In this document: piece after piece, positions 1 through 42,362 of the stretch
How positions within the stretch are numbered: position 1 is the first letter of the stretch
How the letters are laid out: every line of letters starts with the position of its first letter
DNA from: a virus
Direction: 5' to 3' (one strand)
Virus record (IMG/VR): IMGVR_UViG_3300009678_001576
Length of the DNA stretch: 64,000 nucleotides
The notes under the pieces: model-generated
Told to the model about the DNA's origin: nothing
The model's database searches: none
Seen by the model: only the letters and a program-made list of their open reading frames with translations
Program-made: the position numbers and the translations under genes

Positions 1-243
1 GAACAATTTTCTAGTTTCTGAAGCAGTATCTGCAATGCGCAAAACTGGACGAGTTGCAGCAGAAGAGCCATCAGCAACGTAACCGTCAAGGACGTCAAAA
101 GCCGCCTTTTCAGTTGAGCTATTAACACGAACTGCCTCATCTAAAGTTCCTAACATGCCGCCAAGTAATAGCGACAAATCAGTTTCTAGAAAATCAAACT
201 GACCAATAGGTTGTACACCTGGTTGTAATAGATATAATGCCAT
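1..243 (-). CDS. Partial CDS running off the window edge; putative head decoration-like protein (MALYLLQPGVQPIGQFDFLETD...)
   Basis: Not in the ORF track. ATG at 243-241, GGAGG at 252-256, open for 81 codons to position 1. The N-terminus loosely resembles 6755..7447. It lies downstream of a candidate late promoter. Confidence 0.7.
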   Translation of the reverse strand, partial: MALYLLQPGVQPIGQFDFLETDLSLLLGGMLGTLDEAVRVNSSTEKAAFDVLDGYVADGSSAATRPVLRIADTASETRKLF

Positions 244-343
244 TATTTTATCCTCCGATAAAAGTTATTTTTATATTATGAGGATAATTCTCTTAGCAAA
301 ACATAGTTCGGCGTAGAGAACAACCTTTCAACTATATATATTA

Positions 344-354
344 TTATTAGTAGA
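344..354 (-). promoter_or_regulatory. Candidate phage late promoter motif TCTACTAATAA
   Basis: One of five intergenic minus-strand copies of TCTAYYAATAW found by eye. Confidence 0.5.
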
Positions 355-358
355 TCTT

Positions 359-2026
359 TTAGTACTCTTTCATCATTTCGTTTAGTTTTAGAAGGTCATT
401 ATATGAAATAACCGCCCCAGAAGCCGGATTTACCAATAAATTAATCATTTTAGTGTCGCCAGTCTTCCTATAATACTCATTTTCGAGTCTTTTCAGGGCA
501 TCTATGGTTGCCGAGTCTAATTTACCAGTCGTAGGTATATTTAAGAAGCTTTGGATTTTGGGTAGATCGCCACCAGTAATTGCCTGGTCTAAATCAACTC
601 CAGGTATCTTAACACCAGTCTTTAGCCCTAAGTCTATAGTTTTTTTGCTAAAATCTTCTGCCAAAGCCATTAAGTCTCGTCCTAATTGCTGGGCTTTAGC
701 TGGATCATTACTATTAGATACGACCACATCCCAGCGACTAAGGCTATTAATGATATTTGATACCTCATTCGATAATTGAGGCAGCTTATCTTGAACCGTA
801 GCAGGATTATCACCAAATTCATGTGATAGCTCAGCACTTAAAGTCTGAATTTTAGCCAAAGAGGCATTTACGCTATCGAATATTGGCTTGCCTTCGCCAC
901 CTACCTCTAGACTATTAACTTGAGCCGCCAATCTAGATGCATCTGAAGTTAATTGTTCTGGTGGATTGTCAGAGAACCAATTTAGAAGTCCGACAGCACC
1001 GACTGTTGATGCGCCTACGGCAGCTAAAGGTAATTTAAACTTTTGAGCTATTTCTTGCGGAGTAAGTCCTAATTTTTCTCTGGCTTTAACATCTGCTTTC
1101 ATTTTGCCAATAAGTTCACGAATTTTTGGACTTGGGCTTAAGCCAGGGGTCTCTAATTCTCTTATATAAGCTAAATTCTTTGGATTCTTAAGCCAAGATT
1201 CTTTAATAGGTGAGCCGTCGCCTAAACTTAATATGCGACCGTACTCTTTGATAAATCGTTTAGGGGCATCGAGATTTTGACTAGTAAGTTGTCCGGATAA
1301 TACTTGGTCTGAAATCTTTTTAACTTCATTCTTTATATTTCCATACCAACTAGTGAGGTCTTGCAATTCGGTCAATAGCGATTTGTCCATACCAGCAAAT
1401 TCAGCATTAAGATTATCTAAGTATTTGGTGGCAGCAACTATACCATCTTGTTGTAATATGTTATTTAACTCGTCCGTTTTCTTTTGTAGCGATCGTACGT
1501 AATCAAGTTTTTTGGCATTGTCAGCGCTTCTTTTTAGAAGGTCGTCCATTACGCCGCCATGGGTCATGCGGTCTCGTTGAATATCACTTAATTCCTTTTT
1601 CATTTTGTCTGACATCTTTTTAGAATTAACCAATATTCTTTCTCGTTGCGATAAGCTTTCTTCTAGTTCTTTAGCCTGTTGGAGTCTTTTGGTAAACATT
1701 CCACCAGCTTCGCCTAAGTTAGTTTCACTTCTTTTCAACTGTGACATCTGTTTAGTTATCTTGTCTCTGAATGGAGCAAGCTTTTCTCCAATAGACATTT
1801 GCATCGATTTAGGAGATTTTGCTAGTAGTTCGAATATATCATCGGTGGAATTGTCCCAACTATTAACAAGTTTCATAGCTTCTTGTGGAGGCATATAACC
1901 TCTCCACCATTTGCTGATGTTTGTTCCAGCAGATTCGCCAAGTTCGCCCAGCATTTTACCGGCCTTGGGAGCTATTTCCTCGACAGCCTTCATAATTTTA
2001 GGCCCGAGTTTCCCCAACCAGCCCAA
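359..2026 (-). CDS. Coiled-coil virion protein with a hydrophobic segment and a C-terminal peptidoglycan-binding-like motif; probably the C-terminal part of a -1 frameshift fusion with 2062..2511
   Basis: Has only a TTG start with no suitably spaced SD. The frame is open upstream to 2101. PG-binding-like LPKIQSFLNIPTTGKLDSATIDALKRLE at ~485-570 and hydrophobic LPLAAVGASTVGAVGLLNWF. Confidence 0.7.
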   Translation of the reverse strand: MGWLGKLGPKIMKAVEEIAPKAGKMLGELGESAGTNISKWWRGYMPPQEAMKLVNSWDNSTDDIFELLAKSPKSMQMSIGEKLAPFRDKITKQMSQLKRSETNLGEAGGMFTKRLQQAKELEESLSQRERILVNSKKMSDKMKKELSDIQRDRMTHGGVMDDLLKRSADNAKKLDYVRSLQKKTDELNNILQQDGIVAATKYLDNLNAEFAGMDKSLLTELQDLTSWYGNIKNEVKKISDQVLSGQLTSQNLDAPKRFIKEYGRILSLGDGSPIKESWLKNPKNLAYIRELETPGLSPSPKIRELIGKMKADVKAREKLGLTPQEIAQKFKLPLAAVGASTVGAVGLLNWFSDNPPEQLTSDASRLAAQVNSLEVGGEGKPIFDSVNASLAKIQTLSAELSHEFGDNPATVQDKLPQLSNEVSNIINSLSRWDVVVSNSNDPAKAQQLGRDLMALAEDFSKKTIDLGLKTGVKIPGVDLDQAITGGDLPKIQSFLNIPTTGKLDSATIDALKRLENEYYRKTGDTKMINLLVNPASGAVISYNDLLKLNEMMKEY

Positions 2027-2061
2027 AGGTATAGCTGTTTTATGTAAGGGACTTACCTCGT

Positions 2062-2511
2062 TTATTCGACGAGAGCCCCGTCGAAAGGGAGTTTCTCTAC
2101 ATCATCCAATAATTTTGTAGCAGCATCGGTAAGTAATTCTGCAGCTTTGTCTTCTCCATTAGCATCACAAGCATCAGCCATTTTAATTAAAGCACCAATT
2201 GCTGTAGCATAACGATGAACTAATGAGCCAGTGGGCATCTTATTTATGATTTCTATCATCTTCTTTTGATTTTCAATTTCGTTTTCTACAAGAGCGCCAT
2301 CGCCCTGGGATTCGGCAATATATACTGGTTCTGGGTGAGCAAGTTCCATAATATTCTTTTCAGGAGTCTTTAGACGTTTCTCTTCGATAGTTTTCTTATC
2401 TTCTTGGTAGGGATTTGGCGCAGGAGCAGCAGTCTTCTTTAATCCAAGAAGGTCGCCATCCTTAGCAATTTTAGCAAATTCCACCATAACATCAGAATTA
2501 TTCCAATCCAT
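2062..2511 (-). CDS. Scaffold-like leader protein (NSDVMVEFAKI leader, AHP..VE motif, helical tag)
   Basis: ORF track 149 aa; shares motifs with 5442..6230, 3110..4756 and the scaffold C-terminal region. Confidence 0.85.
   Translation of the reverse strand: MDWNNSDVMVEFAKIAKDGDLLGLKKTAAPAPNPYQEDKKTIEEKRLKTPEKNIMELAHPEPVYIAESQGDGALVENEIENQKKMIEIINKMPTGSLVHRYATAIGALIKMADACDANGEDKAAELLTDAATKLLDDVEKLPFDGALVE
2083..2089 (-). promoter_or_regulatory. Candidate -1 frameshift heptamer C CCT TTC
   Basis: Zero-frame CCT TTC re-pairs to CCC TTT, which is the frame of 359..2026. A downstream bulged stem GGGGC-T-CTCGT/ACGAG-GTAA-GTCCC can form. Confidence 0.6.
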
Positions 2512-2513: not shown

Positions 2514-3110
2514 TTAGCTCCTATTTTTATCTAGATTACCTAGTAGGTCAACAATATCACCCATATTTTGACCCTGAAACATTTCTTGAACGGCCTCTTG
2601 TCCAACTTCCTTAACCTTTTCTTTAGCGATTCCCTTTACCTTGTTATATATGTCGCCCGTACTAGAAGCCCCAAGTGCCATAGCAATAAACGCAAATGCT
2701 CTTAATATAAGACTTGTTATCATCTTGGCGAGCTTACCTGGGCCGCCGAATAGTCTAAAAATACCACCTAGGCCGGCAACCTTAATCATCTGTCCATTAT
2801 TATCTAATGCAGCTTTAGCCTCTAGCATACCCATAAACAAGTTATTTAGGTTATCAGCATCTTGCGGCGTAACATCACTCTTGGGACCTTTACCTAATTT
2901 CTTATCTAGCCAGGCACCAAAATCTTCTATGCCATAACCAAACCAAGAAGCAAATTTATCGATTAAGGTAAGTAATAGTCCACCAAATCCGGCAAATAAT
3001 ACAGGAGAATAGCTAATGAGCCTGAATAGATTTTCAAAAGGCCCTTCGCTGTCTCGCCATACAACCGAAACTGCTTTCAGTAAATCAGTGTTATCAGCTT
3101 GTCGTTTCAT
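2514..3110 (-). CDS. Hypothetical membrane-associated virion protein
   Basis: 198 aa with two hydrophobic segments (VLFAGFGGLLLTLI; ITSLILRAFAFIAMALGA) and an internal MIKVA motif. Confidence 0.8.
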   Translation of the reverse strand: MKRQADNTDLLKAVSVVWRDSEGPFENLFRLISYSPVLFAGFGGLLLTLIDKFASWFGYGIEDFGAWLDKKLGKGPKSDVTPQDADNLNNLFMGMLEAKAALDNNGQMIKVAGLGGIFRLFGGPGKLAKMITSLILRAFAFIAMALGASSTGDIYNKVKGIAKEKVKEVGQEAVQEMFQGQNMGDIVDLLGNLDKNRS

Positions 3111-4756
3111 TAGAATGAATAGCGCCCTTCTTTAAAATCGTCAGCAATTTCAGACCAACTCCAGTCTCTAGGTGCGCGTGCTCTATACTTTCTATAAATA
3201 TATTCACGCATAGCTTGTTCCGACATTCCCCTATCTTGTAGAAACATATATAAACTAACTTCGCGGCCCGACTTTGGATCGTTCATTATTATTGAGCGCA
3301 AACAAGCAGAAACTTCTTCTGGACTTGGATTCGCTTTGTTAGGATTACACATTACACCTTGAGTGGGGTCTTGTTGTGTTTGTAAATTAGCAGGTGCAGC
3401 AGTACCATCAGCAGAAACTACTTTCTGTAAATAAGAATACAATACCCTTACAGCATCGCTTACATTCTCAGGATTAGACATAACTTTAAAATCTACTATA
3501 GATTTTTCGTCTAAACCAGCATATTTTCTCAAATAGTCATCAAGCTCTGGAGATTTAGCAACCAAACCTGTAAATGCAGCAGCTGTATTAACACCATAAG
3601 CACCGTCTTCCTCTATTCTATCGATACCGGTTTTAAGTGCTATGTTAAGTCGATTTATCAATCTTTGTAAGAGCGTTACTTGTGGATTTTTACCAACCCT
3701 GCCACGAGTTGCACCAGGGGCCGCAGCAGATGGTGGTTCACTGGAGGTTCTAAATGCTCTCTTGGAAATATAAGGTTTGGCGCTAGCAGGCCTATTTCGT
3801 GATGGCTTTGCTTGTTGTTTTGCTTCCATTCTCTGTAAGCTATTTCTCATGCGATCTCGTAGAGCAACCATAGGAGTTACATACTGATTTATTTCTTCTT
3901 CAGTTGCTGATTCATTGATTACCTTATTTACGAAATTTCGCACAACCCTTTCGTCTATGTCGGTTTTTTCATAAATTGGCTTTTCACCAGATTGTTGTAC
4001 TCTGGCCTCAAGAGCGATAATATCCTTTGCTACATCTACCAAATCAACACCAGTTGCTTGACCCTTTTGGGCAATTAATTGTTGAGCAGCTTGTTGTGCT
4101 CGTTGTTTGATATCAGCAAGTTGCTGATTTATAGCAGCAGTAGTTTTAGTTAGAGCGTTTTCAAATTGTGTAATATCTCTTTCGTAAAAAGGATCTGTTA
4201 GCAAAGGCTTAACCTGCGGCCAAGTAAGAGCCATTTGATTCAAGTAAGTAGCTACTCTTTCAATATTTCCTAATTGTTGTCTAGCTTGATTTACGACTTC
4301 GCCAGGCTTATTTGGATCAGGAGCCATCTGTACTTGAAAATATGGAAGAAAGCTAGCAAGGTCCGTCTTCCACTTTTCAACTACGCTTTGAGCATCAGTA
4401 TCTTCATAATCTAGAGCTTCGATTCTTTCTAATAAATCCTTAACCCTATTGTCTGCGAGTCTAGTTCCCTGATAAATAGCAAACGCTACACCACCGGCTA
4501 ATAGTACCCATCCTATAGGGCCACCGGCGATTGCAGCTGCTGCACCAGCTGTTCCAGTTGCCGCGCCCGCACCAGTTAATCCACCGGCAACGCCAAAATA
4601 ACCTAAACCACCCATGAGCCCAACATCTGTTAAGGCAGTTAGACCAAGGCTGTTTGCGACATCTCCCCAGTCCCATGCTTCTTTTATCATAGGAGAGGAG
4701 TAGCCCATTATCTTGGCGTATTCCATCATTATTTCGCTATTTTCAAATTGAGACAT
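3110..4756 (-). CDS. Putative ejection or internal virion protein with a glycine-rich hydrophobic region and a peptidoglycan-binding-like domain
   Basis: NSEIMMEYAKI leader, MIKEA, Gly/Ala hydrophobic stretch at ~4470-4660, ISKRA at 3755-3769, PG-binding-like VTLLQRLIN..EEDGAYGVNTAAA at ~3575-3685. Confidence 0.75.
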   Translation of the reverse strand: MSQFENSEIMMEYAKIMGYSSPMIKEAWDWGDVANSLGLTALTDVGLMGGLGYFGVAGGLTGAGAATGTAGAAAAIAGGPIGWVLLAGGVAFAIYQGTRLADNRVKDLLERIEALDYEDTDAQSVVEKWKTDLASFLPYFQVQMAPDPNKPGEVVNQARQQLGNIERVATYLNQMALTWPQVKPLLTDPFYERDITQFENALTKTTAAINQQLADIKQRAQQAAQQLIAQKGQATGVDLVDVAKDIIALEARVQQSGEKPIYEKTDIDERVVRNFVNKVINESATEEEINQYVTPMVALRDRMRNSLQRMEAKQQAKPSRNRPASAKPYISKRAFRTSSEPPSAAAPGATRGRVGKNPQVTLLQRLINRLNIALKTGIDRIEEDGAYGVNTAAAFTGLVAKSPELDDYLRKYAGLDEKSIVDFKVMSNPENVSDAVRVLYSYLQKVVSADGTAAPANLQTQQDPTQGVMCNPNKANPSPEEVSACLRSIIMNDPKSGREVSLYMFLQDRGMSEQAMREYIYRKYRARAPRDWSWSEIADDFKEGRYSF

Positions 4757-5403
4757 TATCCAGCCCTTAGACTACGCACCACTTCTGGTGTTAGATTTGA
4801 ACGTAAGTTTTGTAATGCAATATTTCTTATATATTCGTCTCTGCTCTTATCATCTCTGAATTGAGTATTGCCAACATCAGCTACAGCTCTATCAACTTCC
4901 TGTTTCATTAACTGTTTTAATTGTGAAATGGCATTTACAGGAAGCTCTCGTACATTCTTAACTCCCATCATTTGCATAGCATGTGGGAATAAACTTAATT
5001 GAACTTGTTGTTTTACTGGCGCCCATAAATCGCCTCTTGGTGCAGCTGGCGCAGGAGCTTGTTGTTGGCCAGGCATCGGAGGCATTTCTCTATTTGCAGG
5101 TGTTGCTGGTTGCTTAGCAGCTTGCATTTGTTGATAAGCAGCCTTAGTAGCTGGGCCCCACACACCATCATCTTTTAAATAACCAGGCATTCCTGGCTTA
5201 AAACCGTGCTGTCTATTATATCTTCGTTGCCAATTTTGAACTGCTGTAGTCCCGCCGCGACCTAATCCAGTTTGTGCTGGTTTTTGGGTCTGTGGTGTTG
5301 CTGGTTGCACGGATTGTCGTGGCTCATATTCTGTTCCAGTAGGAACTGACATTGAAGCACCACTCGGATCTGTCATACCCACATCTTCACCAGGATAAGA
5401 CAT
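4756..5403 (-). CDS. Peptidoglycan-binding domain protein; probably the C-terminal part of a -1 fusion with 5442..6230
   Basis: VQNWQRRYN..LKDDGVWGPATKAA matches the PG_binding_1 pattern. The frame is open upstream through the A10 run. Confidence 0.75.
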   Translation of the reverse strand: MSYPGEDVGMTDPSGASMSVPTGTEYEPRQSVQPATPQTQKPAQTGLGRGGTTAVQNWQRRYNRQHGFKPGMPGYLKDDGVWGPATKAAYQQMQAAKQPATPANREMPPMPGQQQAPAPAAPRGDLWAPVKQQVQLSLFPHAMQMMGVKNVRELPVNAISQLKQLMKQEVDRAVADVGNTQFRDDKSRDEYIRNIALQNLRSNLTPEVVRSLRAG

Positions 5404-5441
5404 GCCGTATTCAGCACCCGCAGGCGGCTCCTCCGCAACAA

Positions 5442-6230
5442 CTATTCTTTTTTTTTTAACAGGTTATCCACCTGATTAGCATATTTCTTATAGCCTAACC
5501 TATCAAGGTCATCAGCCAATACAACTAAAACGTGGTTTAATACGTCTTCTGGAGTAGCAACCGCACGTATAATTTCCTTTAGACCATCTAATTTGTCTTT
5601 GTGGCCCATCTTGGCAAGCTTGGTATAAAGATTAACCATCGAAGCATATGTTCCCTTTGGCATTTTCTTAACAACCTCAAGGTCAGCCTTTTGTTGTTCA
5701 ACGATAGTCTCTACTAAATTATCTTTAGTTTTGCTATGAGTTAGCTCAGTTTTGGTTCCGCCACCTGGGTGTGCTTGGTTTACCAAGTCTTCACCAGTTT
5801 CGCCGGTGACATCATATTCTTTGCCTTCTTTGGCAGCCGTAACTACTTCATCACCCTCTACGCTGTTTCTTGATGGTGGCAATTGAGCAACCATAGTCTC
5901 AGCTTCTCCGGCATATTGTGGAGCTAGTAGCTTTGAGACTTGTACTTTGAACGCTGCTATTTCATTAGGATTTTTTGGAAATCGCCTAGAAAGATTAGCG
6001 ACACTTTGATTTATATGCTGATCTAATTCCTTTTTAGCTCGTTGATAGTCGCCCTTATATTTTTCCATTAACTTAGCAGAGAGTTCGTTCAATCGAACAG
6101 CCTCATCATATAAAGGATTTGCGGCCTCTTTTGTCATTTCATCGGAAGCAACTTTGACCAATCCCTGCTCCTGTGCTATACGAGCAAACTCTTTCAACAC
6201 AGTGCTCTCATCGAATTTTATATTTCTCAT
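5442..6230 (-). CDS. Scaffold-like leader protein (ESTVLKEFARI leader, AHPGG..VET motif, C-terminal helical tag)
   Basis: ORF track 262 aa with SD GGAGA; shares motifs with 2062..2511 and the scaffold. Confidence 0.85.
   Translation of the reverse strand: MRNIKFDESTVLKEFARIAQEQGLVKVASDEMTKEAANPLYDEAVRLNELSAKLMEKYKGDYQRAKKELDQHINQSVANLSRRFPKNPNEIAAFKVQVSKLLAPQYAGEAETMVAQLPPSRNSVEGDEVVTAAKEGKEYDVTGETGEDLVNQAHPGGGTKTELTHSKTKDNLVETIVEQQKADLEVVKKMPKGTYASMVNLYTKLAKMGHKDKLDGLKEIIRAVATPEDVLNHVLVVLADDLDRLGYKKYANQVDNLLKKKE
5448..5457 (-). promoter_or_regulatory. Candidate -1 frameshift or transcriptional slippage site (A10 run)
   Basis: TTA AAA AAA AAA GAA TAG. The -1 frame reads KKKRIVVAEEPPAGAEYG into the ATG at 5403. 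An SD-like AGGTG lies 11 nt upstream (5469-5473). Confidence 0.6.
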
Positions 6231-7475: not shown

Positions 7476-7865
7476 TTATTCTTCGTCGGTAGTAGTTTCA
7501 GTCTCTAGGTTTGTAACAAGTACGTTCAAAGCTTCGTCGACCAAACCAGAAGCTTCTGGGGCACCAGCAGCGTCTAATTCATCAGCAAGTTTTACCAACT
7601 CACCAACTACGCCAGCTAATACTTCAGCCTTCTTCTTCTTTTTCTTGGCCTTTGCTTTTGCTTTGTCAGCCTTCTCTTTTTCTTTTTCCTTGTCAGCCTT
7701 GGCCTTATCCTTTTCTTTCTTGGCCATTTCCTTGCACTTGCAGGGCTCTTTGCCGCACTCTTCGCATTTCTCGTCTTCTTTTTCCTTTTTGGCCGCAGTC
7801 TTATCTAAACCATTTCCCAATAGTTTGGATAGCTCAGCTACCATTTCGTCACCCATTCTAGACAT
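7476..7865 (-). CDS. Small Lys/Glu-rich head protein with helical tag
   Basis: ATG at 7865 is preferred over TTG 7871 because of AAGGAG spacing. LDKTA, CEECGKEPCKC, KEK-rich tract, ELVKLADELDAAGAPEASGLVD. Confidence 0.8.
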   Translation of the reverse strand: MSRMGDEMVAELSKLLGNGLDKTAAKKEKEDEKCEECGKEPCKCKEMAKKEKDKAKADKEKEKEKADKAKAKAKKKKKKAEVLAGVVGELVKLADELDAAGAPEASGLVDEALNVLVTNLETETTTDEE

Positions 7866-7879
7866 GTTCAAGCTCCTTA

Positions 7880-9433
7880 TTAATGTTTTAGATTTTGTAT
7901 TACTTCTTCAAGCTTATTCGCTTCGTCTACAAAACCTTTCGTTTTCAAACGAATTGATACTTTGGTTATTATATCTTTGGCCCTTAAAAAAGACAAAGAT
8001 TTTTCATCTTCTTCCTCTTCTTCTTGCTGTAAAGCTTTCTCGAAATCCTTTTGTCGCTGCGTTCGTTCTTTTTCACGCTCAGCTCTTTCTTTTTGTTCCT
8101 GGCGTTGCTCCTCGCGCTCTTGACGACTTTCCATTTTTTCTTCACTAACGTATCGTTGTTTAGATAGTAACTCAAAAATAGCCATGCGTAGAGCTTTAAA
8201 AACTTCTACCGGGTTAGCACCGGCAGTTTCAAATAATACTACTGGTTTAATTTTTGAAGACTTGCCCATAAAGGTAACTGGAAACTTAACCAAGTCAACA
8301 GTATAAATAGGGTTATCTCTAACTTTAGACTCTCCTACTTCAAAACTCCATACGTAATTCGATTCTGTTTTTTGCCAACTTCCCTCTGCTCTATCGAAAC
8401 CCATTCTTGCGCCAGGCAATTCGGCAAGAGCAGCCGATACTTCGTCTGGAATTGGACTGGTTATATAGGTTTGTTCTTCTAACTCTTGTCGTCTTTGGCG
8501 CTCTTGGAAAGCGCGTTCTTCCTCTTCGGTCGGCTCTGGCTCAACTTCAGGTAACTCCATAGGCACATTCATTGATGGGCCGACCGGAGCTTTGGCCGGA
8601 GAAGCTGGAGCAACTGATATATTGGATGGGACTGGAGGCATCGGAATATCAACAGCCTCTTTTAATAGTTTGCCTAATTTTGTTATTGATTCTAGGTCTA
8701 GTTTAGTCATAGAAAGTTTATCCGTACCTTCTTCCTTAAGAAATAATTTTTTAAAGTATGAATCATACTTGAGCATATTCAAATCCGGGTCTTGAAAAAA
8801 GCTATCGGATTGTTTAGCTCTAATAAGAAATACTAATTCGTGTAACCCTGTTCTTAACTCTTCGTCAGATAAAGCACGTAATTTAGTAGAAAAATACTTC
8901 AAGTCGTTAGTAGTCCAACCCAATTGTTTCATGGCTAGCTTGAATAGAGGTACTAGAAGATTAACAAATTCTGGTTTATCAAATATTTGTTTGCGAACAG
9001 CCTCAAGTGGATTCTTTCGTACCAAAGAGCGCCAAGCTGCCTCATCAATTTTACCAAACTCCGGAACATAGTGAAACTTATATTCAAAATATTTCTCTGG
9101 AGTATTTTCAATTATATTCATTAGCATATTGCTGGTAATCTCATTTAACTTACCAACCAAATGATATTTGTGCTTATGAACATATGATTCTGGGTCTTCT
9201 TCAGCCAGAATTTTAGCATTTCGTTTCGATATCCCGTAGCCCTTTGAAACATCAGGCTCATTGTCCTTTCTGCCAGAAATACCGGGAATGTATTCTGGGG
9301 TTCCTTCAAATTGGTCTTCTGGTCTCTTGCCAAATCCAGGTTCAAGTCTTTTCTTGAATTCTGGGTCTAATTCCTTTGCGTCCTGCTCAACCAAGGCAGC
9401 GAATTTTGATAAAATTTCGTCTCTAGTTTTCAT
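7880..9433 (-). CDS. Hypothetical head protein with helical repeats and a C-terminal helical tag
   Basis: 517 aa. PEKYF..PEFGKIDEAAWRSLVRKNP resembles polyprotein repeats. Ends with ITKVSIRLKTKGFVDEANKLEEVI. Confidence 0.85.
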   Translation of the reverse strand: MKTRDEILSKFAALVEQDAKELDPEFKKRLEPGFGKRPEDQFEGTPEYIPGISGRKDNEPDVSKGYGISKRNAKILAEEDPESYVHKHKYHLVGKLNEITSNMLMNIIENTPEKYFEYKFHYVPEFGKIDEAAWRSLVRKNPLEAVRKQIFDKPEFVNLLVPLFKLAMKQLGWTTNDLKYFSTKLRALSDEELRTGLHELVFLIRAKQSDSFFQDPDLNMLKYDSYFKKLFLKEEGTDKLSMTKLDLESITKLGKLLKEAVDIPMPPVPSNISVAPASPAKAPVGPSMNVPMELPEVEPEPTEEEERAFQERQRRQELEEQTYITSPIPDEVSAALAELPGARMGFDRAEGSWQKTESNYVWSFEVGESKVRDNPIYTVDLVKFPVTFMGKSSKIKPVVLFETAGANPVEVFKALRMAIFELLSKQRYVSEEKMESRQEREEQRQEQKERAEREKERTQRQKDFEKALQQEEEEEDEKSLSFLRAKDIITKVSIRLKTKGFVDEANKLEEVIQNLKH

Positions 9434-13497: not shown

Positions 13498-14091
13498 TTA
13501 CGCACCCTCTTCTTCTTCAAAAGTTTCGGCTTCTTCGCCTTCAGCCCCCATAAACTCTTTAACTTCTTCTTCGCTTGGGTCTTCTGATTCAAGTGGAGTT
13601 TCTGGTAGTGATTCAACGCCATGAGCAAAGGAAAAGGGGTCACTGGCATTTTGGTCTTTCTTTTCTTCTTTCATTTCTTTCATCTCTGCCTTTAGTCTTT
13701 CTAAATCACCCTTCGATGGCTTTTTACCAAAGCAGAGTTCAAACATTTTTCGATTTGCATCACTCATGCCGCTGTGTAAGCTGTGCATGTCTTGGATAGC
13801 TTGGTCTAAACCAATACCTTTGGCAGAGTCAGCTACGTCAAAATAACGAAGGCGTCTGCGCAATTCCTCTAGGCCGTCCTTTGATTCTTGAAGACTATCA
13901 ACGGCTTTATTTACAAACTTAAGAAAATCCTTCTTAACCTTCTCATCCATTCCTTTTAAAGGTGCTTTGGGACGAGCAGCAAGAGCCTTTATAGTTTCAT
14001 CAACGGCATCTGACAATTCAAATTTACCATCACGGTCATATTTGTCTGCCAATTTAGTCAAGACTGCCAAGTATTTATCTGATTTGTTCAT
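13498..14091 (-). CDS. Hypothetical head protein with N-terminal helical tag
   Basis: 197 aa; VLTKLADKYDRDGKFELSDAVD; the stop abuts the protease ATG. Confidence 0.85.
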   Translation of the reverse strand: MNKSDKYLAVLTKLADKYDRDGKFELSDAVDETIKALAARPKAPLKGMDEKVKKDFLKFVNKAVDSLQESKDGLEELRRRLRYFDVADSAKGIGLDQAIQDMHSLHSGMSDANRKMFELCFGKKPSKGDLERLKAEMKEMKEEKKDQNASDPFSFAHGVESLPETPLESEDPSEEEVKEFMGAEGEEAETFEEEEGA

Positions 14092-15780: not shown

Positions 15781-16536
15781 TTATTTAGTTGGGAAACGTG
15801 CTTGATATAAAGGAGATTGAGTTATATCATAGGGCTGTTTTCTTGGGTCATTATAAATGTCTTGAGTTATTTGTTGTACGGCCCTTTCTTGTTCCTGTTT
15901 GACGCGTTCCGCTTCCTTAGCCTTGCGCAATAGAGCCAGGATTTCAGATGCTTTCTGTCCCTTATTGCCAGGATTCCAGACTCCTGGGTATTTGCGTAGT
16001 CTTAGGCCCATATCTCTATCGAAGATGCCTGGAGGAAGACCAAGTTCTTGACGAATTTGATTTATTAAAGCAGTGCCTTTTCTGGAAACTGGGGTTGATT
16101 CGACTTGTTCTGGTGGGAAATTATAAGTAGTTTTACCAGGTTCTGTTAGCATAGCAACTTCTTGCGCAACTTTGTCTATTTCGTTAGCTTCATCAAATAG
16201 GCCTTTAGCGTCTAAATCATTGGCTAGTTTAGTAAGGGCCGTTAAAGCTCTAGCATATTTATCTAATAATTTTTGTCTTTGTGGAACCGTAATATACATT
16301 GAGCCCTCTTTGAATTCTTCTTCGTGACTGCCCTTGGGAGTTGGTAAGGTATTATATATATTCTCTACAATACCTTTAAATTCTCCAATAGTTATTATTC
16401 CATCTATACATTGGTCTAATATAAGCTTAATTTTATCTAGCATTTCAGAATATTTTATATCACGTGATATTCGTTCTCTATTCTGTTTGTTAGAGATTTC
16501 CTTTTTTCGTTGGTCTAGGTCAATGATATCAGGCAT
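15781..16536 (-). CDS. Hypothetical head protein with internal helical tag
   Basis: 251 aa; ALTKLANDLDAKGLFDEANEID. Confidence 0.85.
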   Translation of the reverse strand: MPDIIDLDQRKKEISNKQNRERISRDIKYSEMLDKIKLILDQCIDGIITIGEFKGIVENIYNTLPTPKGSHEEEFKEGSMYITVPQRQKLLDKYARALTALTKLANDLDAKGLFDEANEIDKVAQEVAMLTEPGKTTYNFPPEQVESTPVSRKGTALINQIRQELGLPPGIFDRDMGLRLRKYPGVWNPGNKGQKASEILALLRKAKEAERVKQEQERAVQQITQDIYNDPRKQPYDITQSPLYQARFPTK

Positions 16537-33999: not shown

Positions 34000-34317
34000 T
34001 TACATTATTCCAAGAGAAACTTGTATTGCATCCCACTCATCCCCAGTAATAGTAACATCTGGGCCACCATCTGTAAATTTAAGAACAACCTTTTCATCTG
34101 GAGGATTGCCTGATATTTGAACCTCTGCATCATCAGTATATCTTTTCATAATATCATTAAACTGCTGAAATGTTAATGTGGTGCCTTCAACTCGCTCATC
34201 ATCTGGAGAAGTTGCGAGTTTAATTGCAAAATCAATCCTACTTGCGTCGGCATATAAACCACGTTTGTCTAATGAATTGGCAATAATAATTAGATGTTTT
34301 AATATTGATTTATTCAC
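34000..34317 (-). CDS. Small protein with N-terminal helical tag plus K-x-A site
   Basis: GTG start with GGAGA; HLIIIANSLDKRGLYADASRIDFAIKLA. Confidence 0.8.
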   Translation of the reverse strand: MNKSILKHLIIIANSLDKRGLYADASRIDFAIKLATSPDDERVEGTTLTFQQFNDIMKRYTDDAEVQISGNPPDEKVVLKFTDGGPDVTITGDEWDAIQVSLGIM

Positions 34318-35511: not shown

Positions 35512-36135
35512 TTATTTCTTCTTTTTTCTTTTACGCTTACTTATCGGTCTATCGGTTATAGTCTTAATTTTATCCATATGCATATAGGGACTTTCGCCGT
35601 AATCAAAATTTCTACGCCAAAAGTCTGGTAATTCTGGATTTTGTGTCTTTCCTCGCGGCCCCAAATGTCTATCGCGTGCATCCTGATGAACTTTTTTGAG
35701 ATTAGTATAATATTTAGGATCTTCGGAAAGATGGTCTAGGGCTATTTCTTGTGCCATATCTTTATTTCCAGTGTGCTCTAATTCAACTTTAATTCCCATT
35801 TCTAATTGTTTTTGATTAACATCATCTGGCTTTAAATCAGCGCCCAGTCCACCCGGAATTATTTGATCGTCGGCAGCTGCAGGCGGTGCTGGAGTTGTAG
35901 TGGTGACTGGCGGTGGAGCAATAATCATACTTTTCATTTCTCTGGTTTTATCGACTATTACTTTATTCATTGCTACAACGTTTGCATTTAACTCTGATAA
36001 TATTGCTTGTATATTTGGTTGTGGTTGTTTTAACAAATTATTCATTTTAGAAATGTGATTACCAACAGCATCTTGTATGGCTTTTAACTTCAAATCCACC
36101 ATTGTCATTTGTGCTTGGTCTGCTGTTTTTTTCAT
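35512..36135 (-). CDS. Hypothetical protein with a DUF5661-like segment
   Basis: MGIKVELEHT..AQEIALDHLSEDPKYY recalled as the DUF5661 pattern (not searched); MKKTA start, ISKRK end. Confidence 0.6.
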   Translation of the reverse strand: MKKTADQAQMTMVDLKLKAIQDAVGNHISKMNNLLKQPQPNIQAILSELNANVVAMNKVIVDKTREMKSMIIAPPPVTTTTPAPPAAADDQIIPGGLGADLKPDDVNQKQLEMGIKVELEHTGNKDMAQEIALDHLSEDPKYYTNLKKVHQDARDRHLGPRGKTQNPELPDFWRRNFDYGESPYMHMDKIKTITDRPISKRKRKKKK

Positions 36136-36902
36136 TACAACGCCCTCACCAATTGTCGTTTTTGTATCAAAATATCTGAAAGGGTTTTAGTTAAAGGGAT
36201 ATGCGGCAGTAATTTAAACTCTATAAGCATATCAATGCCCTTATCAGCGTCTAGCATAACTATTTCATTTGCTTTGTCTTGAACAAACTTTGTTGGCAAT
36301 TTTTTGATATTCTTTCTGTATTCTAGCATTGCTTGTTTAAGACTTTCTTCAATCTTAAAATCGTATTTAATGGCAAATTTAATAGCTCTCAAAATTCTTC
36401 GCGGATCTACGCCGATAGTTATTCTGGGATCTATTGGGCACTTGATGAGCCCTGCCTGAATATCGCCAATGCCTTCGCCGGTCAAGTCATATATAGTAGT
36501 GAAATCTAAACTCTCTAATAGAGTATTAATTGTAAAATCTCTACTATATATTTCCTTTTTCATAGGCGTAATATCTTTAATGCCCAATCTTTTTAATTCT
36601 TTATCGATTCCTGGTGCTAGAAAGTTGCTGGAAAAATCAATGTGAAGGCTCATAATATCCAATGAAGTATGTCCATCATCGTAAGTTCTTAAGTTGCTAT
36701 CTGGATATTTTCGATTAATAGCAAATGCTAACTCAATAGCATCTTTGTCTCCAGTAGTTATATCAACATCCGCAATTTCTGATATCTTGCCTTTTCGACC
36801 AAGCATACGATCTCTTGGAACACCGCCAACTATGAAAGGGGTATTTATATTATTGGCCTTTGCAATTTCTCCAATATCCAGTAAGAGTTCGTTGATATTC
36901 AT
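36135..36902 (-). CDS. Stand-alone CCA/poly(A) polymerase-family nucleotidyltransferase
   Basis: IVGGVPRD, DVDI, SRDFTIN, DPRRILRAIKF. Confidence 0.88.
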   Translation of the reverse strand: MNINELLLDIGEIAKANNINTPFIVGGVPRDRMLGRKGKISEIADVDITTGDKDAIELAFAINRKYPDSNLRTYDDGHTSLDIMSLHIDFSSNFLAPGIDKELKRLGIKDITPMKKEIYSRDFTINTLLESLDFTTIYDLTGEGIGDIQAGLIKCPIDPRITIGVDPRRILRAIKFAIKYDFKIEESLKQAMLEYRKNIKKLPTKFVQDKANEIVMLDADKGIDMLIEFKLLPHIPLTKTLSDILIQKRQLVRAL

Positions 36903-36910: not shown

Positions 36911-38020
36911 TTACTTAACTGGAGGTAATTTGGTTTGTATCTGGCCGGCGGGCGCTTGCATTAGTTCGTCCTTATTAACTTTCTCTTTTTTGGGCGCCGC
37001 TGTAGGTTCTGGGAAAGGAGCAGTAACCGGAATTGGCTCTGGTTTTGCTGAGCCGCTCCCTCGCAGTTTCGCTATAACGCCCTCGATTCTATTACTTGAG
37101 TAGCCATAAGCCTCAATTAGCTTGGCTTGAGCATCTGTTACTTCGGTGAAATAACTGGCAAGACCCATCTCATTTAAAAGAATATCTACGCTAGCTAATT
37201 CGCGAACAGTGGTTCTAGACTTAAGACGCTTGCTAATTCCTTCAAGTCGAGTAATTACTGTCTGAAGATTTACATTCATGCCACCTGCTGCCTCGGGCGC
37301 ATTTGTGGTTCCGGCCGGCAAAGCCTGAATTACTTCAGTTGCTGATGGAGGAGCCATAGGTGCGGTAGCCGCTGGAGGAGCGGCTGGTGGATCTTGAGCG
37401 ATTTTATTTAGAAAGTCGGCGCCTTCGACAAAGCCAAGTTTCTGTAACTTATTAGCACTACGAACAGTGCAATCAACCATAGAAGCATATACTTCTAAAC
37501 GAGTTATGTTACGGTCTAAGTTAAATAATTCTTGATAGATTGCATCTAAACTGGACTTAGGCATAACTTCATTAAACCTATCAACGAGTCTCTTTAGTGA
37601 CTGCAAACGTGATTTCATCTGGCCCTTAAACTTTTTGGCTTTATCCATCTCTAATTCACGTTGTGTTTTTTGTGGTGTTCTTACTGCGCTTGGTGGGGCA
37701 AACTGGGTGCGATTTGCTGGATTAATCCATTGCTCCAATAGAGGAGATGCTTCTGCCGAAAGTGCTGTTTTAAGTAAGTTGGCGTTTTTCACGTTGTATT
37801 TCTCCGGAGTTCCTGATTCGTAATATCTCATCCAATTTAAAAAGCTTACCTTTTCATTAGGTTCCCAATTAGCCGTGCAATTCTTAATGGCATCTTCTTG
37901 CCCAATACCATCGCGCATAGAAGAATATATTTCTTTTAAGACAGCTACCCACTTGGCAGTATCGTACTTGGGGCCAGTCGAACTAATACCAGATATATTT
38001 GGGTGGGCTTTTTTGTTCAT
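36911..38020 (-). CDS. Hypothetical head protein with internal helical tag
   Basis: 369 aa; RSANKLQKLGFVEGADFLNKIA; ISKRL; Pro/Ala linkers. Confidence 0.85.
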   Translation of the reverse strand: MNKKAHPNISGISSTGPKYDTAKWVAVLKEIYSSMRDGIGQEDAIKNCTANWEPNEKVSFLNWMRYYESGTPEKYNVKNANLLKTALSAEASPLLEQWINPANRTQFAPPSAVRTPQKTQRELEMDKAKKFKGQMKSRLQSLKRLVDRFNEVMPKSSLDAIYQELFNLDRNITRLEVYASMVDCTVRSANKLQKLGFVEGADFLNKIAQDPPAAPPAATAPMAPPSATEVIQALPAGTTNAPEAAGGMNVNLQTVITRLEGISKRLKSRTTVRELASVDILLNEMGLASYFTEVTDAQAKLIEAYGYSSNRIEGVIAKLRGSGSAKPEPIPVTAPFPEPTAAPKKEKVNKDELMQAPAGQIQTKLPPVK

Positions 38021-38760: not shown

Positions 38761-39381
38761 TTACCTTATGGTGACACTCTTGCCAGGCAATTCATGTATT
38801 CTTCCGCCAGAATAATACTCTTCTTGTATTTGATCTGGGGTCTTCTTTTTAATAGCAAGATATTCATTATATCGTTCTGGGTAATCCTTTCTCAATACAC
38901 TTAAATGAAAGTTATTTCGTTCAAGGTCTTTCTTATAAGCCATAAGTTCAATTTCCAATCTTCTTAATTGATCGTGTAATTGTGTAATTTCGGCTGGATT
39001 TTGCGCACGCTGTAATTTTTGGTCAGTAACTTTAATATCTTGTTGAATATTTTTAATATCATCTTGTAAAGTTCTAATATTTTCAACCAATACAGCTGGG
39101 TGAACTTTATATTCCGGTGGCTCAAATACGGGCGGCTGATGCGGCTTCTTAGGCTCAGTTTGTAATTTATCTATAGTTCTCTTAACCATATGCATAACTA
39201 GATTTTTAGTATCTAAAGAAACAGATTGTGCCAAGTCAGCACTCAACATATTCATAAGTGCTGCTGGATCAACCCCTTCACCTGCTTGCTTAATGAGACA
39301 GTCTAATTCATTTGCCTCTTTATGAAGTCCGGCATGGTCAAGCATATCAGCTATGTCTATGAGTTCCGAAATATAATTCAT
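38761..39381 (-). CDS. Coiled-coil protein with N-terminal helical tag plus K-x-A site
   Basis: ELIDIADMLDHAGLHKEANELDCLIKQA. Confidence 0.85.
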   Translation of the reverse strand: MNYISELIDIADMLDHAGLHKEANELDCLIKQAGEGVDPAALMNMLSADLAQSVSLDTKNLVMHMVKRTIDKLQTEPKKPHQPPVFEPPEYKVHPAVLVENIRTLQDDIKNIQQDIKVTDQKLQRAQNPAEITQLHDQLRRLEIELMAYKKDLERNNFHLSVLRKDYPERYNEYLAIKKKTPDQIQEEYYSGGRIHELPGKSVTIR

Positions 39382-39382
39382 A

Positions 39383-40048
39383 TTAACCCTTCAGATTCAT
39401 TATATTTTCTCTAGTATCAAAGAGCCTATGTGGTATGGCATAGTCGGTAGAGCCTGGTGTTTGACCGGCTACTGAACCGCCTGGGTGCTTATTACCGTCA
39501 TAATCTTCCCATCCTGCCTCCCAATTATATATCTTGCCATCTAGGGCGCATTGATAGGTTAATTCCCCAACACGTCCTAAGGAAACACCAATGTGCTCTG
39601 GGCAGTGTCGAGTATTAAGCGCAGTTACATTAGTTTGTTGATAGGTATGGACGTGATGATTTTTAACACCCTCACGATCAACCCTTTCTTGTTCGCGCTT
39701 TGGCTCTCTTATCTGTTGTGAATGATGGAAGTCACTGTCATAACGTTTAGATTGCTCGGTGCTTTTATCTTCTTCCTTCCACTTCATAACATCTTCAGCT
39801 GTCTTCTTGATAAAATTATCTACCAAGTCAGCCTCTTTATTAAGACCAATGCCATCTAGCTTGTCAGCAACACCAGATAGCTTATCCAATACCGCCTCTA
39901 ATGTTACGGCAGTATTGGCTATTTCAGCTACAACAGGTTCTTCTGCTGGAACATCAGTCTCTGTAAGCATATTCATCAATGCTTTAGCATCTTCCTCGGC
40001 GCCGTTTTCTTTTAGAAAATTGGCCAGTTTGACTAATTCGTCATTCAT
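39383..40048 (-). CDS. Protein with two helical tags and a C-terminal Cys/His domain
   Basis: ELVKLANFLKENGAEEDAKAL; GVADKLDGIGLNKEADLVDNFIKKTA; RHCPEH..YQC. Confidence 0.85.
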   Translation of the reverse strand: MNDELVKLANFLKENGAEEDAKALMNMLTETDVPAEEPVVAEIANTAVTLEAVLDKLSGVADKLDGIGLNKEADLVDNFIKKTAEDVMKWKEEDKSTEQSKRYDSDFHHSQQIREPKREQERVDREGVKNHHVHTYQQTNVTALNTRHCPEHIGVSLGRVGELTYQCALDGKIYNWEAGWEDYDGNKHPGGSVAGQTPGSTDYAIPHRLFDTRENIMNLKG

Positions 40049-40061: not shown

Positions 40062-41783
40062 TTAGGTTAGATTAATTTTTGAAGTAGATATAACCGCAGA
40101 AGACTCTTCTACTGGGTTTAGTCTTTGGCGCTCGACACTTGACTTCAACATGCATTCGCCGTTAGCACCAGTCACTACCATGTGCATTGGGATACCGAAG
40201 TGTCCGCAACGAGCATAGATAGAACCTTTACCAGCATGAATCATCTTAGAGCATTGGTGCTGTTCTTGATTTGCTACGCGAGTCTTGCCCATTAGAATAA
40301 ATTGGTAGTCAGCAACCGAGTTCTTGTAGTCCTCTTCATTGAAGCGCTCACCTATGTGATCCAGAATGGTCTCACAGGTTACATAATCATTCTCGCTGGC
40401 CGACTTAAGAATCTCGTCGCGCAATTCAGGCAACAACATATAAGAATAGCCAGTGCTATAGCTTACAGTTCCACTTGAGGGGGTGCGAACGCTAATAGCA
40501 AAGCGCTGTAGCTTTGGAGCGCTAAAGTCTTCAATGAGGCCATCGTGAGCAAAGTAAGATGGCACTAGTGGCACATACTTACCAGCTGCGACTGCCTTCA
40601 TCTCAACCGGCACTTCAATTTCAACTGGACCTTTTGGAGTATTGATTTGAGCAAGATATATAATTGAATCACTGCTCTCTGAACCAAATCTTACTTGAGC
40701 GTTCTTAAAACCAGCTGAAACTAATTCAGAAGTTACAAGTCTCTTACCGGCCGAAATAGCAGCAGTACCAAAAGCACTTGCCGCCTCAAGCACACTATTC
40801 TCAAAATCATGTGCGAGGTGCGCTAATTCTTTTGGCATCTCAACTGTTTCAGTTGTATCAATATCAGCTCGTGGCTCTTCATACTTGCGGTCTAAATACA
40901 AGTTAGGAGTATTTAACGCCATTGCGCCGCTGTCTTGGAATAAGTCAGTCATTCCACTGAATTCTTCCTGGGTGGCTTTCTTTGCCTGACCGGTTAATAT
41001 GCCAATCGCCGTTAAAACATCGGTTGCTTTTGGAGTGGTAAAGTCTCCGGTGTTTGCCTTTCGTGTTACGAAGGCCTGAAGATTGTCAGAATTTAACTCT
41101 TCTAAGTGGTCATCAGCAACGAAGGTGCTGGGCATTAGAAGTTTACCTGAACTTAATTCAATTGGAATAGCTACAGTCACAAGTCCCTTATCTGAATCAA
41201 GGCTTGCGGCATATACTAACGCGCCCAAATTGCCGCCCATGATTTCTACACGAGACTTATTAAAACCAAGCGCCCTAAGCTCGGCTTCAACATAAGTTTG
41301 CCCTTTGTTTGCTAAATTAACATCGTATTCTTTTACTTCATTTAGACTATTGCCAAATGCTGAGTTAAGAGCATTAACTAGGTTTTGATCAACGTAGTCG
41401 CTGGTGTCGAGGTTTGAGACATCGGCATCAACTCTATTCATCCTGGCATAATCAGGGTTTTGAGAACTAAAGGTCATCTTAGATTCTAACAGAAGGTGAC
41501 CTAAAACATTCCTAAACTTTGAATTGCCGGATAGGCGAACGAACTCATTATATATGCGTGAGACGTCTGCTTGTGAAATTAAGGTTCCCTTTGGAGAACG
41601 ATCAAGCATACGCTCGATGGTCACTGCCACCTGACGTATAACTGGATCTTCTGGAAATTTCTCATATGCTTCGCGAGTCTGGTTATAGACGTCTTCTAGC
41701 ATAAACTCCTTGCCATATGACTGCTCATCAAGGGCTTTTTGAGCAAGTCTAGCAAGGTCTTGTACATTTAAATGGTTGGACAT
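40062..41783 (-). CDS. Hypothetical head-module protein with an internal domain duplication
   Basis: 573 aa; ELRALGF..VYAASLDSDKGLVTVAIPIE versus ELVSAGF..IYLAQINTPKGPVEIEVPVE. Confidence 0.85.
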   Translation of the reverse strand: MSNHLNVQDLARLAQKALDEQSYGKEFMLEDVYNQTREAYEKFPEDPVIRQVAVTIERMLDRSPKGTLISQADVSRIYNEFVRLSGNSKFRNVLGHLLLESKMTFSSQNPDYARMNRVDADVSNLDTSDYVDQNLVNALNSAFGNSLNEVKEYDVNLANKGQTYVEAELRALGFNKSRVEIMGGNLGALVYAASLDSDKGLVTVAIPIELSSGKLLMPSTFVADDHLEELNSDNLQAFVTRKANTGDFTTPKATDVLTAIGILTGQAKKATQEEFSGMTDLFQDSGAMALNTPNLYLDRKYEEPRADIDTTETVEMPKELAHLAHDFENSVLEAASAFGTAAISAGKRLVTSELVSAGFKNAQVRFGSESSDSIIYLAQINTPKGPVEIEVPVEMKAVAAGKYVPLVPSYFAHDGLIEDFSAPKLQRFAISVRTPSSGTVSYSTGYSYMLLPELRDEILKSASENDYVTCETILDHIGERFNEEDYKNSVADYQFILMGKTRVANQEQHQCSKMIHAGKGSIYARCGHFGIPMHMVVTGANGECMLKSSVERQRLNPVEESSAVISTSKINLT

Positions 41784-41798
41784 AATAGTCGCCTCCGT

Positions 41799-42266
41799 TT
41801 ATCTCAACTCTGGGAATTGGGCCAAGAGTTGGTTCTTCTTTTCTTCGGGCTGTGAATTAAGGAATCTCTTTAGAAACTCCTTATCTGAGCTTAGCTTACT
41901 TATAAGGGTCTTTTGAAATACATAAACATCGTCAGCATCAAAGCCGAAGTCTTTAGAGGCAAAGCGCTGAATAGGCTTGTCTTTATACAAAAGAGTCACG
42001 TTCTTAGCTTCTTTATCAGCTAAGGCGGACCACTCACTTGTTGTTTCTAGGGGTTTTTCTTGCGTCTCGTCACCGTACATGGCTGAGAGGTATTGCTTAC
42101 CATCCTCGCCATCTTCGAGCGTCCAAAGAGACTCTACTGGGGAAGTATTGAGTTGAAATACGTCAAAAGCGACCTTGGTAAAGAATTGTTTATTGGGCTC
42201 GTAAGGGATTCTTTCTTGTCTCTTGGCATACTTGTCTGCCAACACATTCCAATCTAAGGTATCCAT
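41799..42266 (-). CDS. Hypothetical protein, first gene of the head operon
   Basis: 155 aa, SD AGGAG; downstream of the promoter motif. Confidence 0.85.
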   Translation of the reverse strand: MDTLDWNVLADKYAKRQERIPYEPNKQFFTKVAFDVFQLNTSPVESLWTLEDGEDGKQYLSAMYGDETQEKPLETTSEWSALADKEAKNVTLLYKDKPIQRFASKDFGFDADDVYVFQKTLISKLSSDKEFLKRFLNSQPEEKKNQLLAQFPELR

Positions 42267-42347
42267 TAAGCACTCCTATTGAATAAAATTTTGGTCATAG
42301 AAAACCAGGAGGTCCGAATAGACCTCACCTTACAATATAAGATTAGA

Positions 42348-42358
42348 ATATTAATAGA
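42348..42358 (-). promoter_or_regulatory. Candidate late promoter motif TCTATTAATAT
   Basis: Lies between the terminator after the GAPDH-like gene and the first head-module gene. Confidence 0.5.
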
Positions 42359-42362
42359 AAAT

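Follow-up and report, generated by a model that had tools for sequence, protein, structure and literature searches.

In phage T4, the internal proteins IPI–III and Alt carry a capsid-targeting sequence, are cut by the gp21 prohead protease and are injected with the DNA. Prohead proteases have the assemblin fold in common with the herpesvirus protease. Among giant phages, the head proteases of phiKZ (gp175), SPN3US (gp245) and 201phi2-1 process many head and ejection proteins (PMC5694885, PMC7411985, PMC10052503). Polyvalent proteins are giant multidomain proteins of phages and conjugative elements that combine 2–15 disparate enzymatic domains and for which passage together with the DNA is predicted (Iyer et al. 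2017, PMC5512222). Here we analyse a 64,000-nucleotide stretch of virus DNA (IMG/VR record IMGVR_UViG_3300009678_001576; hereafter the window, at its full length) that holds a head module and, at 42.4–64 kb, replication genes. Every gene of the window is on the minus strand, where all features given below lie. We consider, with moderate confidence, that the head module encodes the substrate family of a head-maturation protease, marked by the rule hydrophobic-x-Lys-x-Ala and, in its strict form, by the pentapeptide (I/L)SKRA. So read, the system varies a theme known from T4 and phiKZ, the processing of head cargo.

The gene immediately downstream of the portal encodes an enzyme polyprotein of 2,959 amino acids (aa; 19199..28078). 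Its modules follow the order topoisomerase IB (TopoIB), LigD-type PrimPol, CCA/polyA nucleotidyltransferase with HD domain, two unidentified modules, 2H phosphoesterase, a further unidentified module and LigD 3'-phosphoesterase. Pfam domains were found at aa 38–239 (TopoIB), 785–898 (LigD PrimPol), 1198–1590 (PolyA_pol and HD), 2461–2589 (2H phosphoesterase) and 2846–2947 (LigD 3'-phosphoesterase), and no peptidase domain was detected by Pfam in the open reading frame (ORF; 2,962 aa). A motif scan identified seven copies of ISKRA and one of LSKRA in this protein. The first stands at residues 3–7 (MEISKRA; 28058..28072), the second at aa 493 on the TopoIB/PrimPol border (26588..26602) and the third at aa 1152 between PrimPol and the CCA-HD module (24611..24625). 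Sites 4 and 5 follow at aa 1693 (22988..23002) and aa 1889 (22400..22414). The 2H phosphoesterase module starts at site 6 (aa 2426; 20789..20803) and ends at site 7 (aa 2600; 20267..20281), and the LSKRA of site 8 (aa 2804; 19655..19669) opens the LigD 3'-phosphoesterase module. The eight copies punctuate the polyprotein, so that each Pfam domain lies in a segment of its own. The original prediction, made from the letters of the window, had placed an ISKRA-like peptide at domain edges, and the Pfam borders agree with it.

The head region holds 12 matches to the pattern [ILVMF]S[KR][RKL]A, where shuffled sequences give 0.49 ± 0.67, and the replication region has none. Two of the genes that carry this pattern encode stand-alone proteins, a Nudix hydrolase opening with MYISKRA and its neighbour opening with MHISKLA (16546..17450; motif scan and Pfam). 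In a related 162-kb contig (G001), 11 strict sites were counted where 0.37 are expected. Across 35 homologous polyproteins of 1.7–3.8 kaa (thousand aa) we found 157 exact copies of (I/L)SKRA, 2–10 per protein, and 17 of 36 homologs have a copy inside their first 20 aa. Conservation is confined to the five motif positions, with flanks below 0.6 bit, and the codons at the 12 motif sites of the window vary synonymously. Selection thus acts on the peptide, and this synonymous variation rules out the motif as a "DNA joint".

The modules themselves shuffle. Homologous modules occupy differing positions among polyproteins, with boundaries at offset 0 from the motif; the TopoIB module, for instance, spans residues 8–497 here, 802–1307 in homolog P0009, 862–1374 in P0020 and 961–1470 in P0015. 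The ATP-dependent DNA ligase (32227..33975) and a DUF5661 protein (35512–36135) are stand-alone genes in the window and polyprotein modules in homologs, the ligase in several of them. A second PolyA_pol-type transferase is also a separate gene (36135..36902) and belongs to the family of one module of the window's own polyprotein. With the ligase gene and the polymerase and phosphoesterase modules of the polyprotein, all three LigD activities are present, though dispersed. The polyprotein gene is flanked by the portal gene and head genes in all relatives.

With five Pfam-backed enzyme modules, three others and a gene adjoining that of the portal, this protein has the features of a polyvalent protein. 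Like described polyvalent proteins, it combines nucleic-acid and conflict enzymes (2H phosphoesterase, primase-polymerase), lies beside virion genes and has a mosaic architecture. It differs from them in its domain set, which amounts to a repair kit (TopoIB, LigD polymerase and phosphoesterase, CCA-adding enzyme), and in having an exact pentapeptide at each module border but no embedded peptidase, a combination that implies cleavage in trans. Most likely, to judge from the sequence comparisons, it is the head protease that cuts the chain, in the capsid.

The looser rule hydrophobic-x-Lys-x-Ala extends to other head proteins. It occurs 74 times in the head region against 35.7 ± 5.8, a count that is inflated because the helices of a recurrent tag, described below, themselves match the pattern (L.KLA, LIKKA), and it stays at chance level in the replication region (15 against 16.2 ± 3.9). 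The predicted confinement of the motifs to the head module was borne out by this comparison, with strict sites and tags both missing from 42.4–64 kb. In the portal protein (28363..30375, identified by PHROG), an alignment of 21 portals placed hydrophobic-x-K-x-A exactly where the variable N-terminal extension joins the conserved core in all 21; in the window this is INKTA at aa 96, followed by Ser (30076–30090). The motif scan returned two further portal sites, FNKTA (30325–30339) and ISKLA at aa 76 (30136–30150). We discarded the latter as the conserved site, as it is missing from the nearest relatives and INKTA is the conserved one.

A rule site lies within 45 aa of the N-terminus in 19 of 36 head proteins and in 2 of 26 replication proteins (p = 3e-4), and several of these sites are kept in orthologs. 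An N-terminal leader closing in the rule is thus present as a pattern in the 19 head proteins and in three paralogous leader proteins described below. This recalls the T4 internal proteins and Alt, which have short N-terminal signals closing in a protease site, and the loading of T4 non-structural proteins in the scaffold core, where they are trimmed. The rule here is hydrophobic-x-Lys-x-Ala, in contrast to the (L/I)-x-Glu of T4, which is read by a gp21-family protease. Unlike T4, the window also has an additional 30-aa tag in N-terminal, internal or C-terminal position and carries its enzymes as a multi-module polyprotein, and it is known from sequence alone. We conclude that the system would be T4-like in its working and is not a member of the T4 type.

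The candidate for the processing enzyme is a 1,278-aa protease-scaffold fusion (9661..13497), identified by family matches and by alignment of relatives. Its protease core spans aa ~40–265, and the remaining ~1,000 residues form a low-complexity scaffold. The protease region matches phrog_18299, "head maturation protease" (E 5.5e-12), and, over aa 133–263, the NCBIfam prohead protease/major capsid protein fusion NF045541 (E 3.7e-7); tblastn matches were Rhodococcus phage E3 gp77 ("prohead protease") and phage G gp19. No match was found in Pfam, and sequence and profile searches of the PDB returned only noise. The original prediction of a prohead protease at this gene therefore holds for its N-terminal ~265 aa, and the fusion to a scaffold was confirmed. 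His138 (in KDH; 13084–13086) and Ser189 (in VSMG; 12931–12933), 51 residues apart, are invariant in eight relatives and from their position may be catalytic. The gene lies 15 kb downstream of the portal gene, and this synteny is kept in relatives.

The fusion protein is itself rich in the rule, with nine hydrophobic-x-K/R-x-A sites, seven of which are kept in at least three of four genomes. Two conserved sites lie in the protease N-terminus, just upstream of the core. A scaffold motif, AHPGG..TELT..KT..VET (10228..10299), is common to the leader protein 5442..6230 (5706–5774) and is found in degenerate form in the leader protein 2062..2511. Two copies of a ~37-aa repeat (RRAYWLGGGG.NEPTPGK.KY.KE.AD.IR..EDK) were observed at scaffold aa ~465–580 (~11750–12110), within a block well conserved in relatives.

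The fusion of protease to scaffold resembles the herpesvirus assemblin-scaffold fusion pUL26, which is cut between Ala and Ser at the (V/L/I)-x-A|S release and maturation sites; in both, the upstream residue is hydrophobic and Ala is the likely P1. Here, by contrast, Lys at P3 is obligatory, there would be many non-scaffold substrates and the fold is presumed. The scissile bond would follow either the Ala or the Lys; with Lys at P3 and Ala at P1, Lys-x-Ala would be a prohead-protease specificity that we did not find described in the literature searched. As in phiKZ, SPN3US and 201phi2-1, the system would belong to a giant phage with one protease motif on dozens of head proteins, packaged ejection proteins among them in those phages. 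The phiKZ-type proteases differ in cutting after Glu in (S/A/G)-x-E, those phages have no pentapeptide-punctuated enzyme polyprotein, and the lineage here is another one, with a phage-G-like portal and protease. In Bacillus phage G (NC_023719), the portal gp14 is 35% identical to that of the window (E 4e-83) and gp19 is 33% identical to the protease region. The loose motif is likewise enriched in the head cluster of phage G (17 sites against 5.4 ± 2.5 expected). Phage G differs in that no tag was found in the cluster, the protease is not fused to a long scaffold and the 26 kb examined contain no ISKRA polyprotein.

A second recurrent element of the head module is a tag of ~30 aa. A profile built from the visible instances was run over all six frames. 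It matched 11 genes between 2089 and 40048, with 13 firm copies among them (E 2e-15 to 5e-9), and returned two weak candidates (the C-terminus of 7880..9433, E 0.04, and aa 189–205 of 36911..38020, E 0.2); there was no match in 42.4–64 kb or in non-coding frames. The consensus, L(I/V)KLAN.LD.KGL.KEA..LD..IKKA, reads as a helix, a Gly turn and a helix, and the AlphaFold2 (AF2) model of a double-tag protein has this helix-turn-helix shape at a predicted local distance difference test score (pLDDT) of about 80, with helices at residues 2–14/18–35 and 39–52/55 onward of 18286..18642. The original prediction described a helix of ~21 aa in at least 13 proteins; its recurrence in the head module stands, while the number is corrected to 11 firm and 2 weak proteins and the element to a longer helix-turn-helix.

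Both leader proteins carry the tag next to a slippery sequence: that of 2062..2511 (aa 105–141; 2089..2199) stops at the slip site J1, and the C-terminal tag of 5442..6230 (aa 232–261; 5448..5537) runs into the A10 run of J2. N-terminal copies are found in 13498..14091 (13975..14070), in 17450..18274 (18158..18265, last residues LIKEA), in 34000..34317 (34195..34302) and in 38761..39381 (39268..39372, last residues LIKQA). The genes 7476..7871 (7518..7607), 14988..15779 (15273..15377) and 15781..16536 (16138..16245) have one tag each. Two proteins have two: 18286..18642, with tandem tags (18418..18642; profile and AF2) followed by a Lys-rich tail, and 39383..40048 (aa 1–37 and 53–93; 39770..40048), whose second tag closes with IKKTA. 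A tag-like scaffold segment at aa 613–631, picked by eye, was dropped, as the profile gave it no support. The products of 7476..7871 and 18286..18642 have long Lys/Glu-rich low-complexity stretches, the former with a Cys cluster (CEECGKEPCKC), and could be DNA-binding internal proteins.

The tag is portable, since the tagged proteins, apart from the two leader paralogs, are unrelated outside it, and profile searches recognised no enzyme domain in the 11 tagged proteins. Of 80 related loci, 42 hold further copies, 71 in total and each on the coding strand. In G001, the head module (43–85 kb) contains all 11 tags, and about 120 kb elsewhere contain none; likewise, all five of a 206-kb contig (G002) fall inside a 24-kb head module, with none in about 180 kb elsewhere. 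Tag and rule are linked, as 28 of 55 relatives' tags close with hydrophobic-x-K-x-A against a background of 10%. The C-terminal coat-binding domain of P22-type scaffolding proteins is also a small helix-turn-helix hairpin and docks an internal prohead protein. The tag differs from it in being acidic to neutral rather than basic and in standing on many proteins, and the two have no sequence similarity.

Three leader paralogs complete the set. They have in common a 27-aa leader closing in GL(V/K)K.A, which is conserved in relatives. The third of them (3110..4756) has the leader NSEIMMEYAKI, MIKEA at aa 23, a Gly-rich hydrophobic segment and an internal ISKRA (3755–3769). In the other two, a slip site stands directly after the tag, so that the unshifted product would be leader plus tag and the shifted product leader, tag and C-terminal part. 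At J1, a −1 shift on the in-phase heptamer C CCT TTC (2083..2089) fuses 2062..2511 (leader and tag, 149 aa) to the start-less ORF 359..2083 ("cargo") into a 717-aa product over 359..2511; the −1 frame is open, and the junction peptide VSPLHKTA is conserved in it. Comparison of four genomes (the window, L082, G001 and G002) showed the in-phase heptamer C CCT TT(C/A) in each, with a 0-frame stop 1–10 codons on; each also has a −1 ORF that lacks a start codon and encodes a peptide conserved from the first post-slip codon onward. This peptide, PF/R.G(S/T)R..VSPL(H/Y)K(T/Q)A with the slash at the slip, is colinear with L095, where the same protein is one unshifted ORF. J1 is therefore well supported, by comparative sequence evidence, as a −1 frameshift. 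At J2, an A10 run (5448..5457) that contains A AAA AAA would join 5442..6230 to 4756..5403 by a −1 shift into a 491-aa product, and the −1 frame is open. This gene pair (4756..6230) is one continuous ORF of 537–732 aa in six relatives. In L082, the J2 ortholog has ISKRA 25 aa past the tag; its match to 4756..5403 is weak and PG-binding-like. The leader-plus-cargo architecture is thus found fused in frame in some relatives and by −1 shift here. Of the two slip sites originally proposed, both exist with open frames; J1 is conserved in four genomes and J2 is restricted to the window, where it may reflect recoding, transcriptional slippage, assembly error or decay. In phage G, a two-piece joined "endolysin" coding sequence, gp22/gp23 (19865–21534), lies between the scaffold-region and capsid genes, the place of the frameshifted leader/cargo genes here.

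We propose that the head module supplies three classes of substrate to one protease. The "beads-on-a-string" polyprotein beside the portal gene, with eight modules each bounded by the pentapeptide, would be one. Eleven unrelated small proteins with the portable 30-aa tag, which often closes in the rule in relatives, would form another. The last would be the three leader paralogs, with N-terminal leader, scaffold-like motif and tag, whose C-terminal part is attached in frame in relatives or, here, through a −1 ribosomal frameshift right after the tag. In the prohead, the substrates would assemble together with the protease-scaffold fusion of 1,278 aa. Once activated, the protease would cut at the motif, free the enzyme modules and trim tags, leaders, the portal N-extension and the scaffold. 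The freed enzymes of nucleic-acid end repair would be retained in the head and delivered to the cell together with the DNA. The comparative data support a shared cleavage-type rule across head-module proteins and modules delimited by it. They depart from the single grammar of tag, cleavage site and enzyme first proposed: the enzymes are untagged and the 11 tagged proteins have no enzyme domain, which makes for at least two substrate classes under one rule. The suggested cell-wall and anti-defence cargo was not recovered either, the former having only sub-threshold PG_binding_1 matches (E 0.06 and 0.11) with no catalytic domain, the latter only a sub-threshold Acb1 match inside the 2H module. 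More tentatively, across a large clade of uncultured huge phages, the recognition peptide may double as a packaging signal. Modules flanked by (I/L)SKRA, or proteins opening with M-x-(I/L)SKRA, would then be captured by the protease-scaffold and released in the prohead, as cassette loading of shuffled DNA/RNA-repair and counter-defence enzymes. A TPR-like (tetratricopeptide repeat-like) hairpin would serve as a second, independent address, and the frameshift would set how much tag-only product is made relative to tag-cargo product.

Several observations weigh against this model, besides the match of the tag's own helices to the loose pattern. The tag was found in none of 39 polyprotein homologs, which leaves the polyprotein's route into the capsid unexplained. 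In a distant complete relative (G003; 371,675 bp), the strict motif is not enriched (4 against 1.1) and the giant protein (2,698 aa) has no repeated junction peptide, which makes the ISKRA polyprotein a trait of a sub-clade. The tags of G003 lie scattered through its genome, and the restriction of tags to the head module in the window and its close relatives may therefore only mirror the clustering of virion genes. Only 4 of 14 window tags close with the strict rule. The AF2 model of the protease, from an eight-sequence alignment, reached a pLDDT of 42 and is unusable, and no major capsid protein was identified within the window. The published particle proteome of phage G comes without N-terminal mapping (PMC12484599), and cleavage and packaging in this clade are predictions from sequence. 

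Alternatively, the motif might be processed outside the capsid, by another phage protease or by a host enzyme cutting after Lys/Arg, with the polyprotein as a cytoplasmic enzyme precursor rather than capsid cargo. The motif Lys is invariant and usually part of a Lys-Arg pair, the polyprotein has no head tag, and the window does encode a second, trypsin-like protease (46727..47476; Trypsin_2, E 1e-14) between RecA and DnaJ. Yet G001, with its excess of strict sites, has no homolog of that gene at the syntenic place, and the product opens with a hydrophobic segment, which suggests export. Classical substrates of prohead proteases, namely portal, scaffold and the N-terminus of the protease, carry the rule as well, and the polyprotein gene keeps its place among head genes; we judge this reading improbable. 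Equally, (I/L)SKRA might never be cut and serve as an inter-module linker or as a docking peptide for portal, scaffold or DNA, the giant protein acting intact. Polyvalent phage proteins can be packaged unprocessed, as is N4 vRNAP (PMC5512222), and a copy at residues 3–7 would remove almost nothing, which is odd for a pure cleavage site. A five-residue motif with unconserved flanks, exact at each module border, is however typical of protease sites, and the looser rule falls where the N-terminal extensions of portal and head proteins stop, which makes an uncleaved linker quite improbable.

Rather than a cargo address, the tag could be a module through which structural proteins of the core or inner body oligomerise, its hairpins stacking on each other or on scaffold; the tagged proteins would then be scaffold-like building blocks in their own right. 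The lack of enzyme domains in tagged proteins is consistent with this, as are the scaffold motif of the leaders and the two proteins with two tags each, which suggest multivalency. The AF2 model is weakly like TPR-type hairpin repeats; membership of that family is not indicated, with no Pfam TPR match and a best Foldseek hit at E 0.26 and a template-modelling score of about 0.3. Against it, half of the relatives' tags are N-terminal and close in the cleavage rule like removable pro-peptides, and the leader tag precedes a separate C-terminal domain, with ISKRA in between in L082. We regard oligomerisation as possible, if doubtful. Finally, both junctions could be assembly errors or decayed split genes rather than programmed recoding. 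J2 invites this explanation, lying within a homopolymer in a gene that is split only in the window, one of the six continuous relatives having the same A10 in frame. At J1, no downstream RNA structure is conserved (folding z −2.7 in the window and −1.3, +0.7 and +0.1 in the three others). However, J1 is common to four independent assemblies with the same in-phase heptamer, its start-less −1 ORF is conserved and colinear with the unshifted ortholog, and the downstream ORFs are intact for 215–555 codons. Error or decay at both sites is accordingly unlikely.

The 2,959-aa polyprotein is on record from a 468,446-bp contig, and the window is therefore part of a huge phage. No close deposited phage was found by blastn, and terminase identity is at most 25%; related portal loci in IMG/VR number at least 267, on contigs of up to 371 kb. 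Read 5' to 3' on the minus strand, replication and host-like genes come first (64–42.4 kb): SbcC-like, PD-(D/E)XK nuclease, trigger factor, RuvC, DnaJ, RecA, primase, sigma-like and IF3. Trigger factor has N, FKBP and C domains (55209–56498), DnaJ has J, Zn and C domains (47479–48516) and IF3 is full-length with both domains (43491–43958). The head module then opens with tagged proteins, a small-terminase-like gene, the stand-alone CCA-type transferase, DUF5661, the ligase, the large terminase (30385..32223; homology and profile matches) and the portal. After the portal come the giant polyprotein, small tagged proteins, the Nudix gene, the protease-scaffold and, last, the leader/"cargo" genes.

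The capsid candidates 40062..41783 and 7880..9433 had no match in Pfam, PHROGs, NCBIfam, PDB or the ESM Atlas. The latter (517 aa), whose neighbours are the scaffold gene and the next tagged gene, has LSKFA at its N-terminus and a degenerate C-terminal tag; its homolog is missing from all eight related loci, and it thus looks like a strain-specific insertion. The best-conserved distal head-module genes, at 45–77% identity, are 6755–7447 (230 aa) and 1–243 (216–237 aa in relatives). Their products matched no family and could belong to the capsid, its decoration or its vertices. Profile comparison of the conserved 220–237-aa gene running off the left end with gp27 and gp26 of phage G revealed no similarity.

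No published description of the motif, the tag or the polyprotein family was found in the literature searched. The pentapeptide and the tag are candidate parts for loading foreign proteins into capsids, as has been done with the T4 targeting sequence. If the model is correct, capsid-internal proteins and their cut positions could be predicted from the genome in hundreds of uncultured huge phages, given the number of IMG/VR loci. These phages would package an end-repair kit of TopoIB, LigD-like polymerase and phosphoesterase, CCA-adding enzyme and 2H phosphoesterase, and a ligase gene lies close by. At the very start of infection, these enzymes could mend or circularise the genome as it comes in, and restore RNA that host nucleases have damaged.

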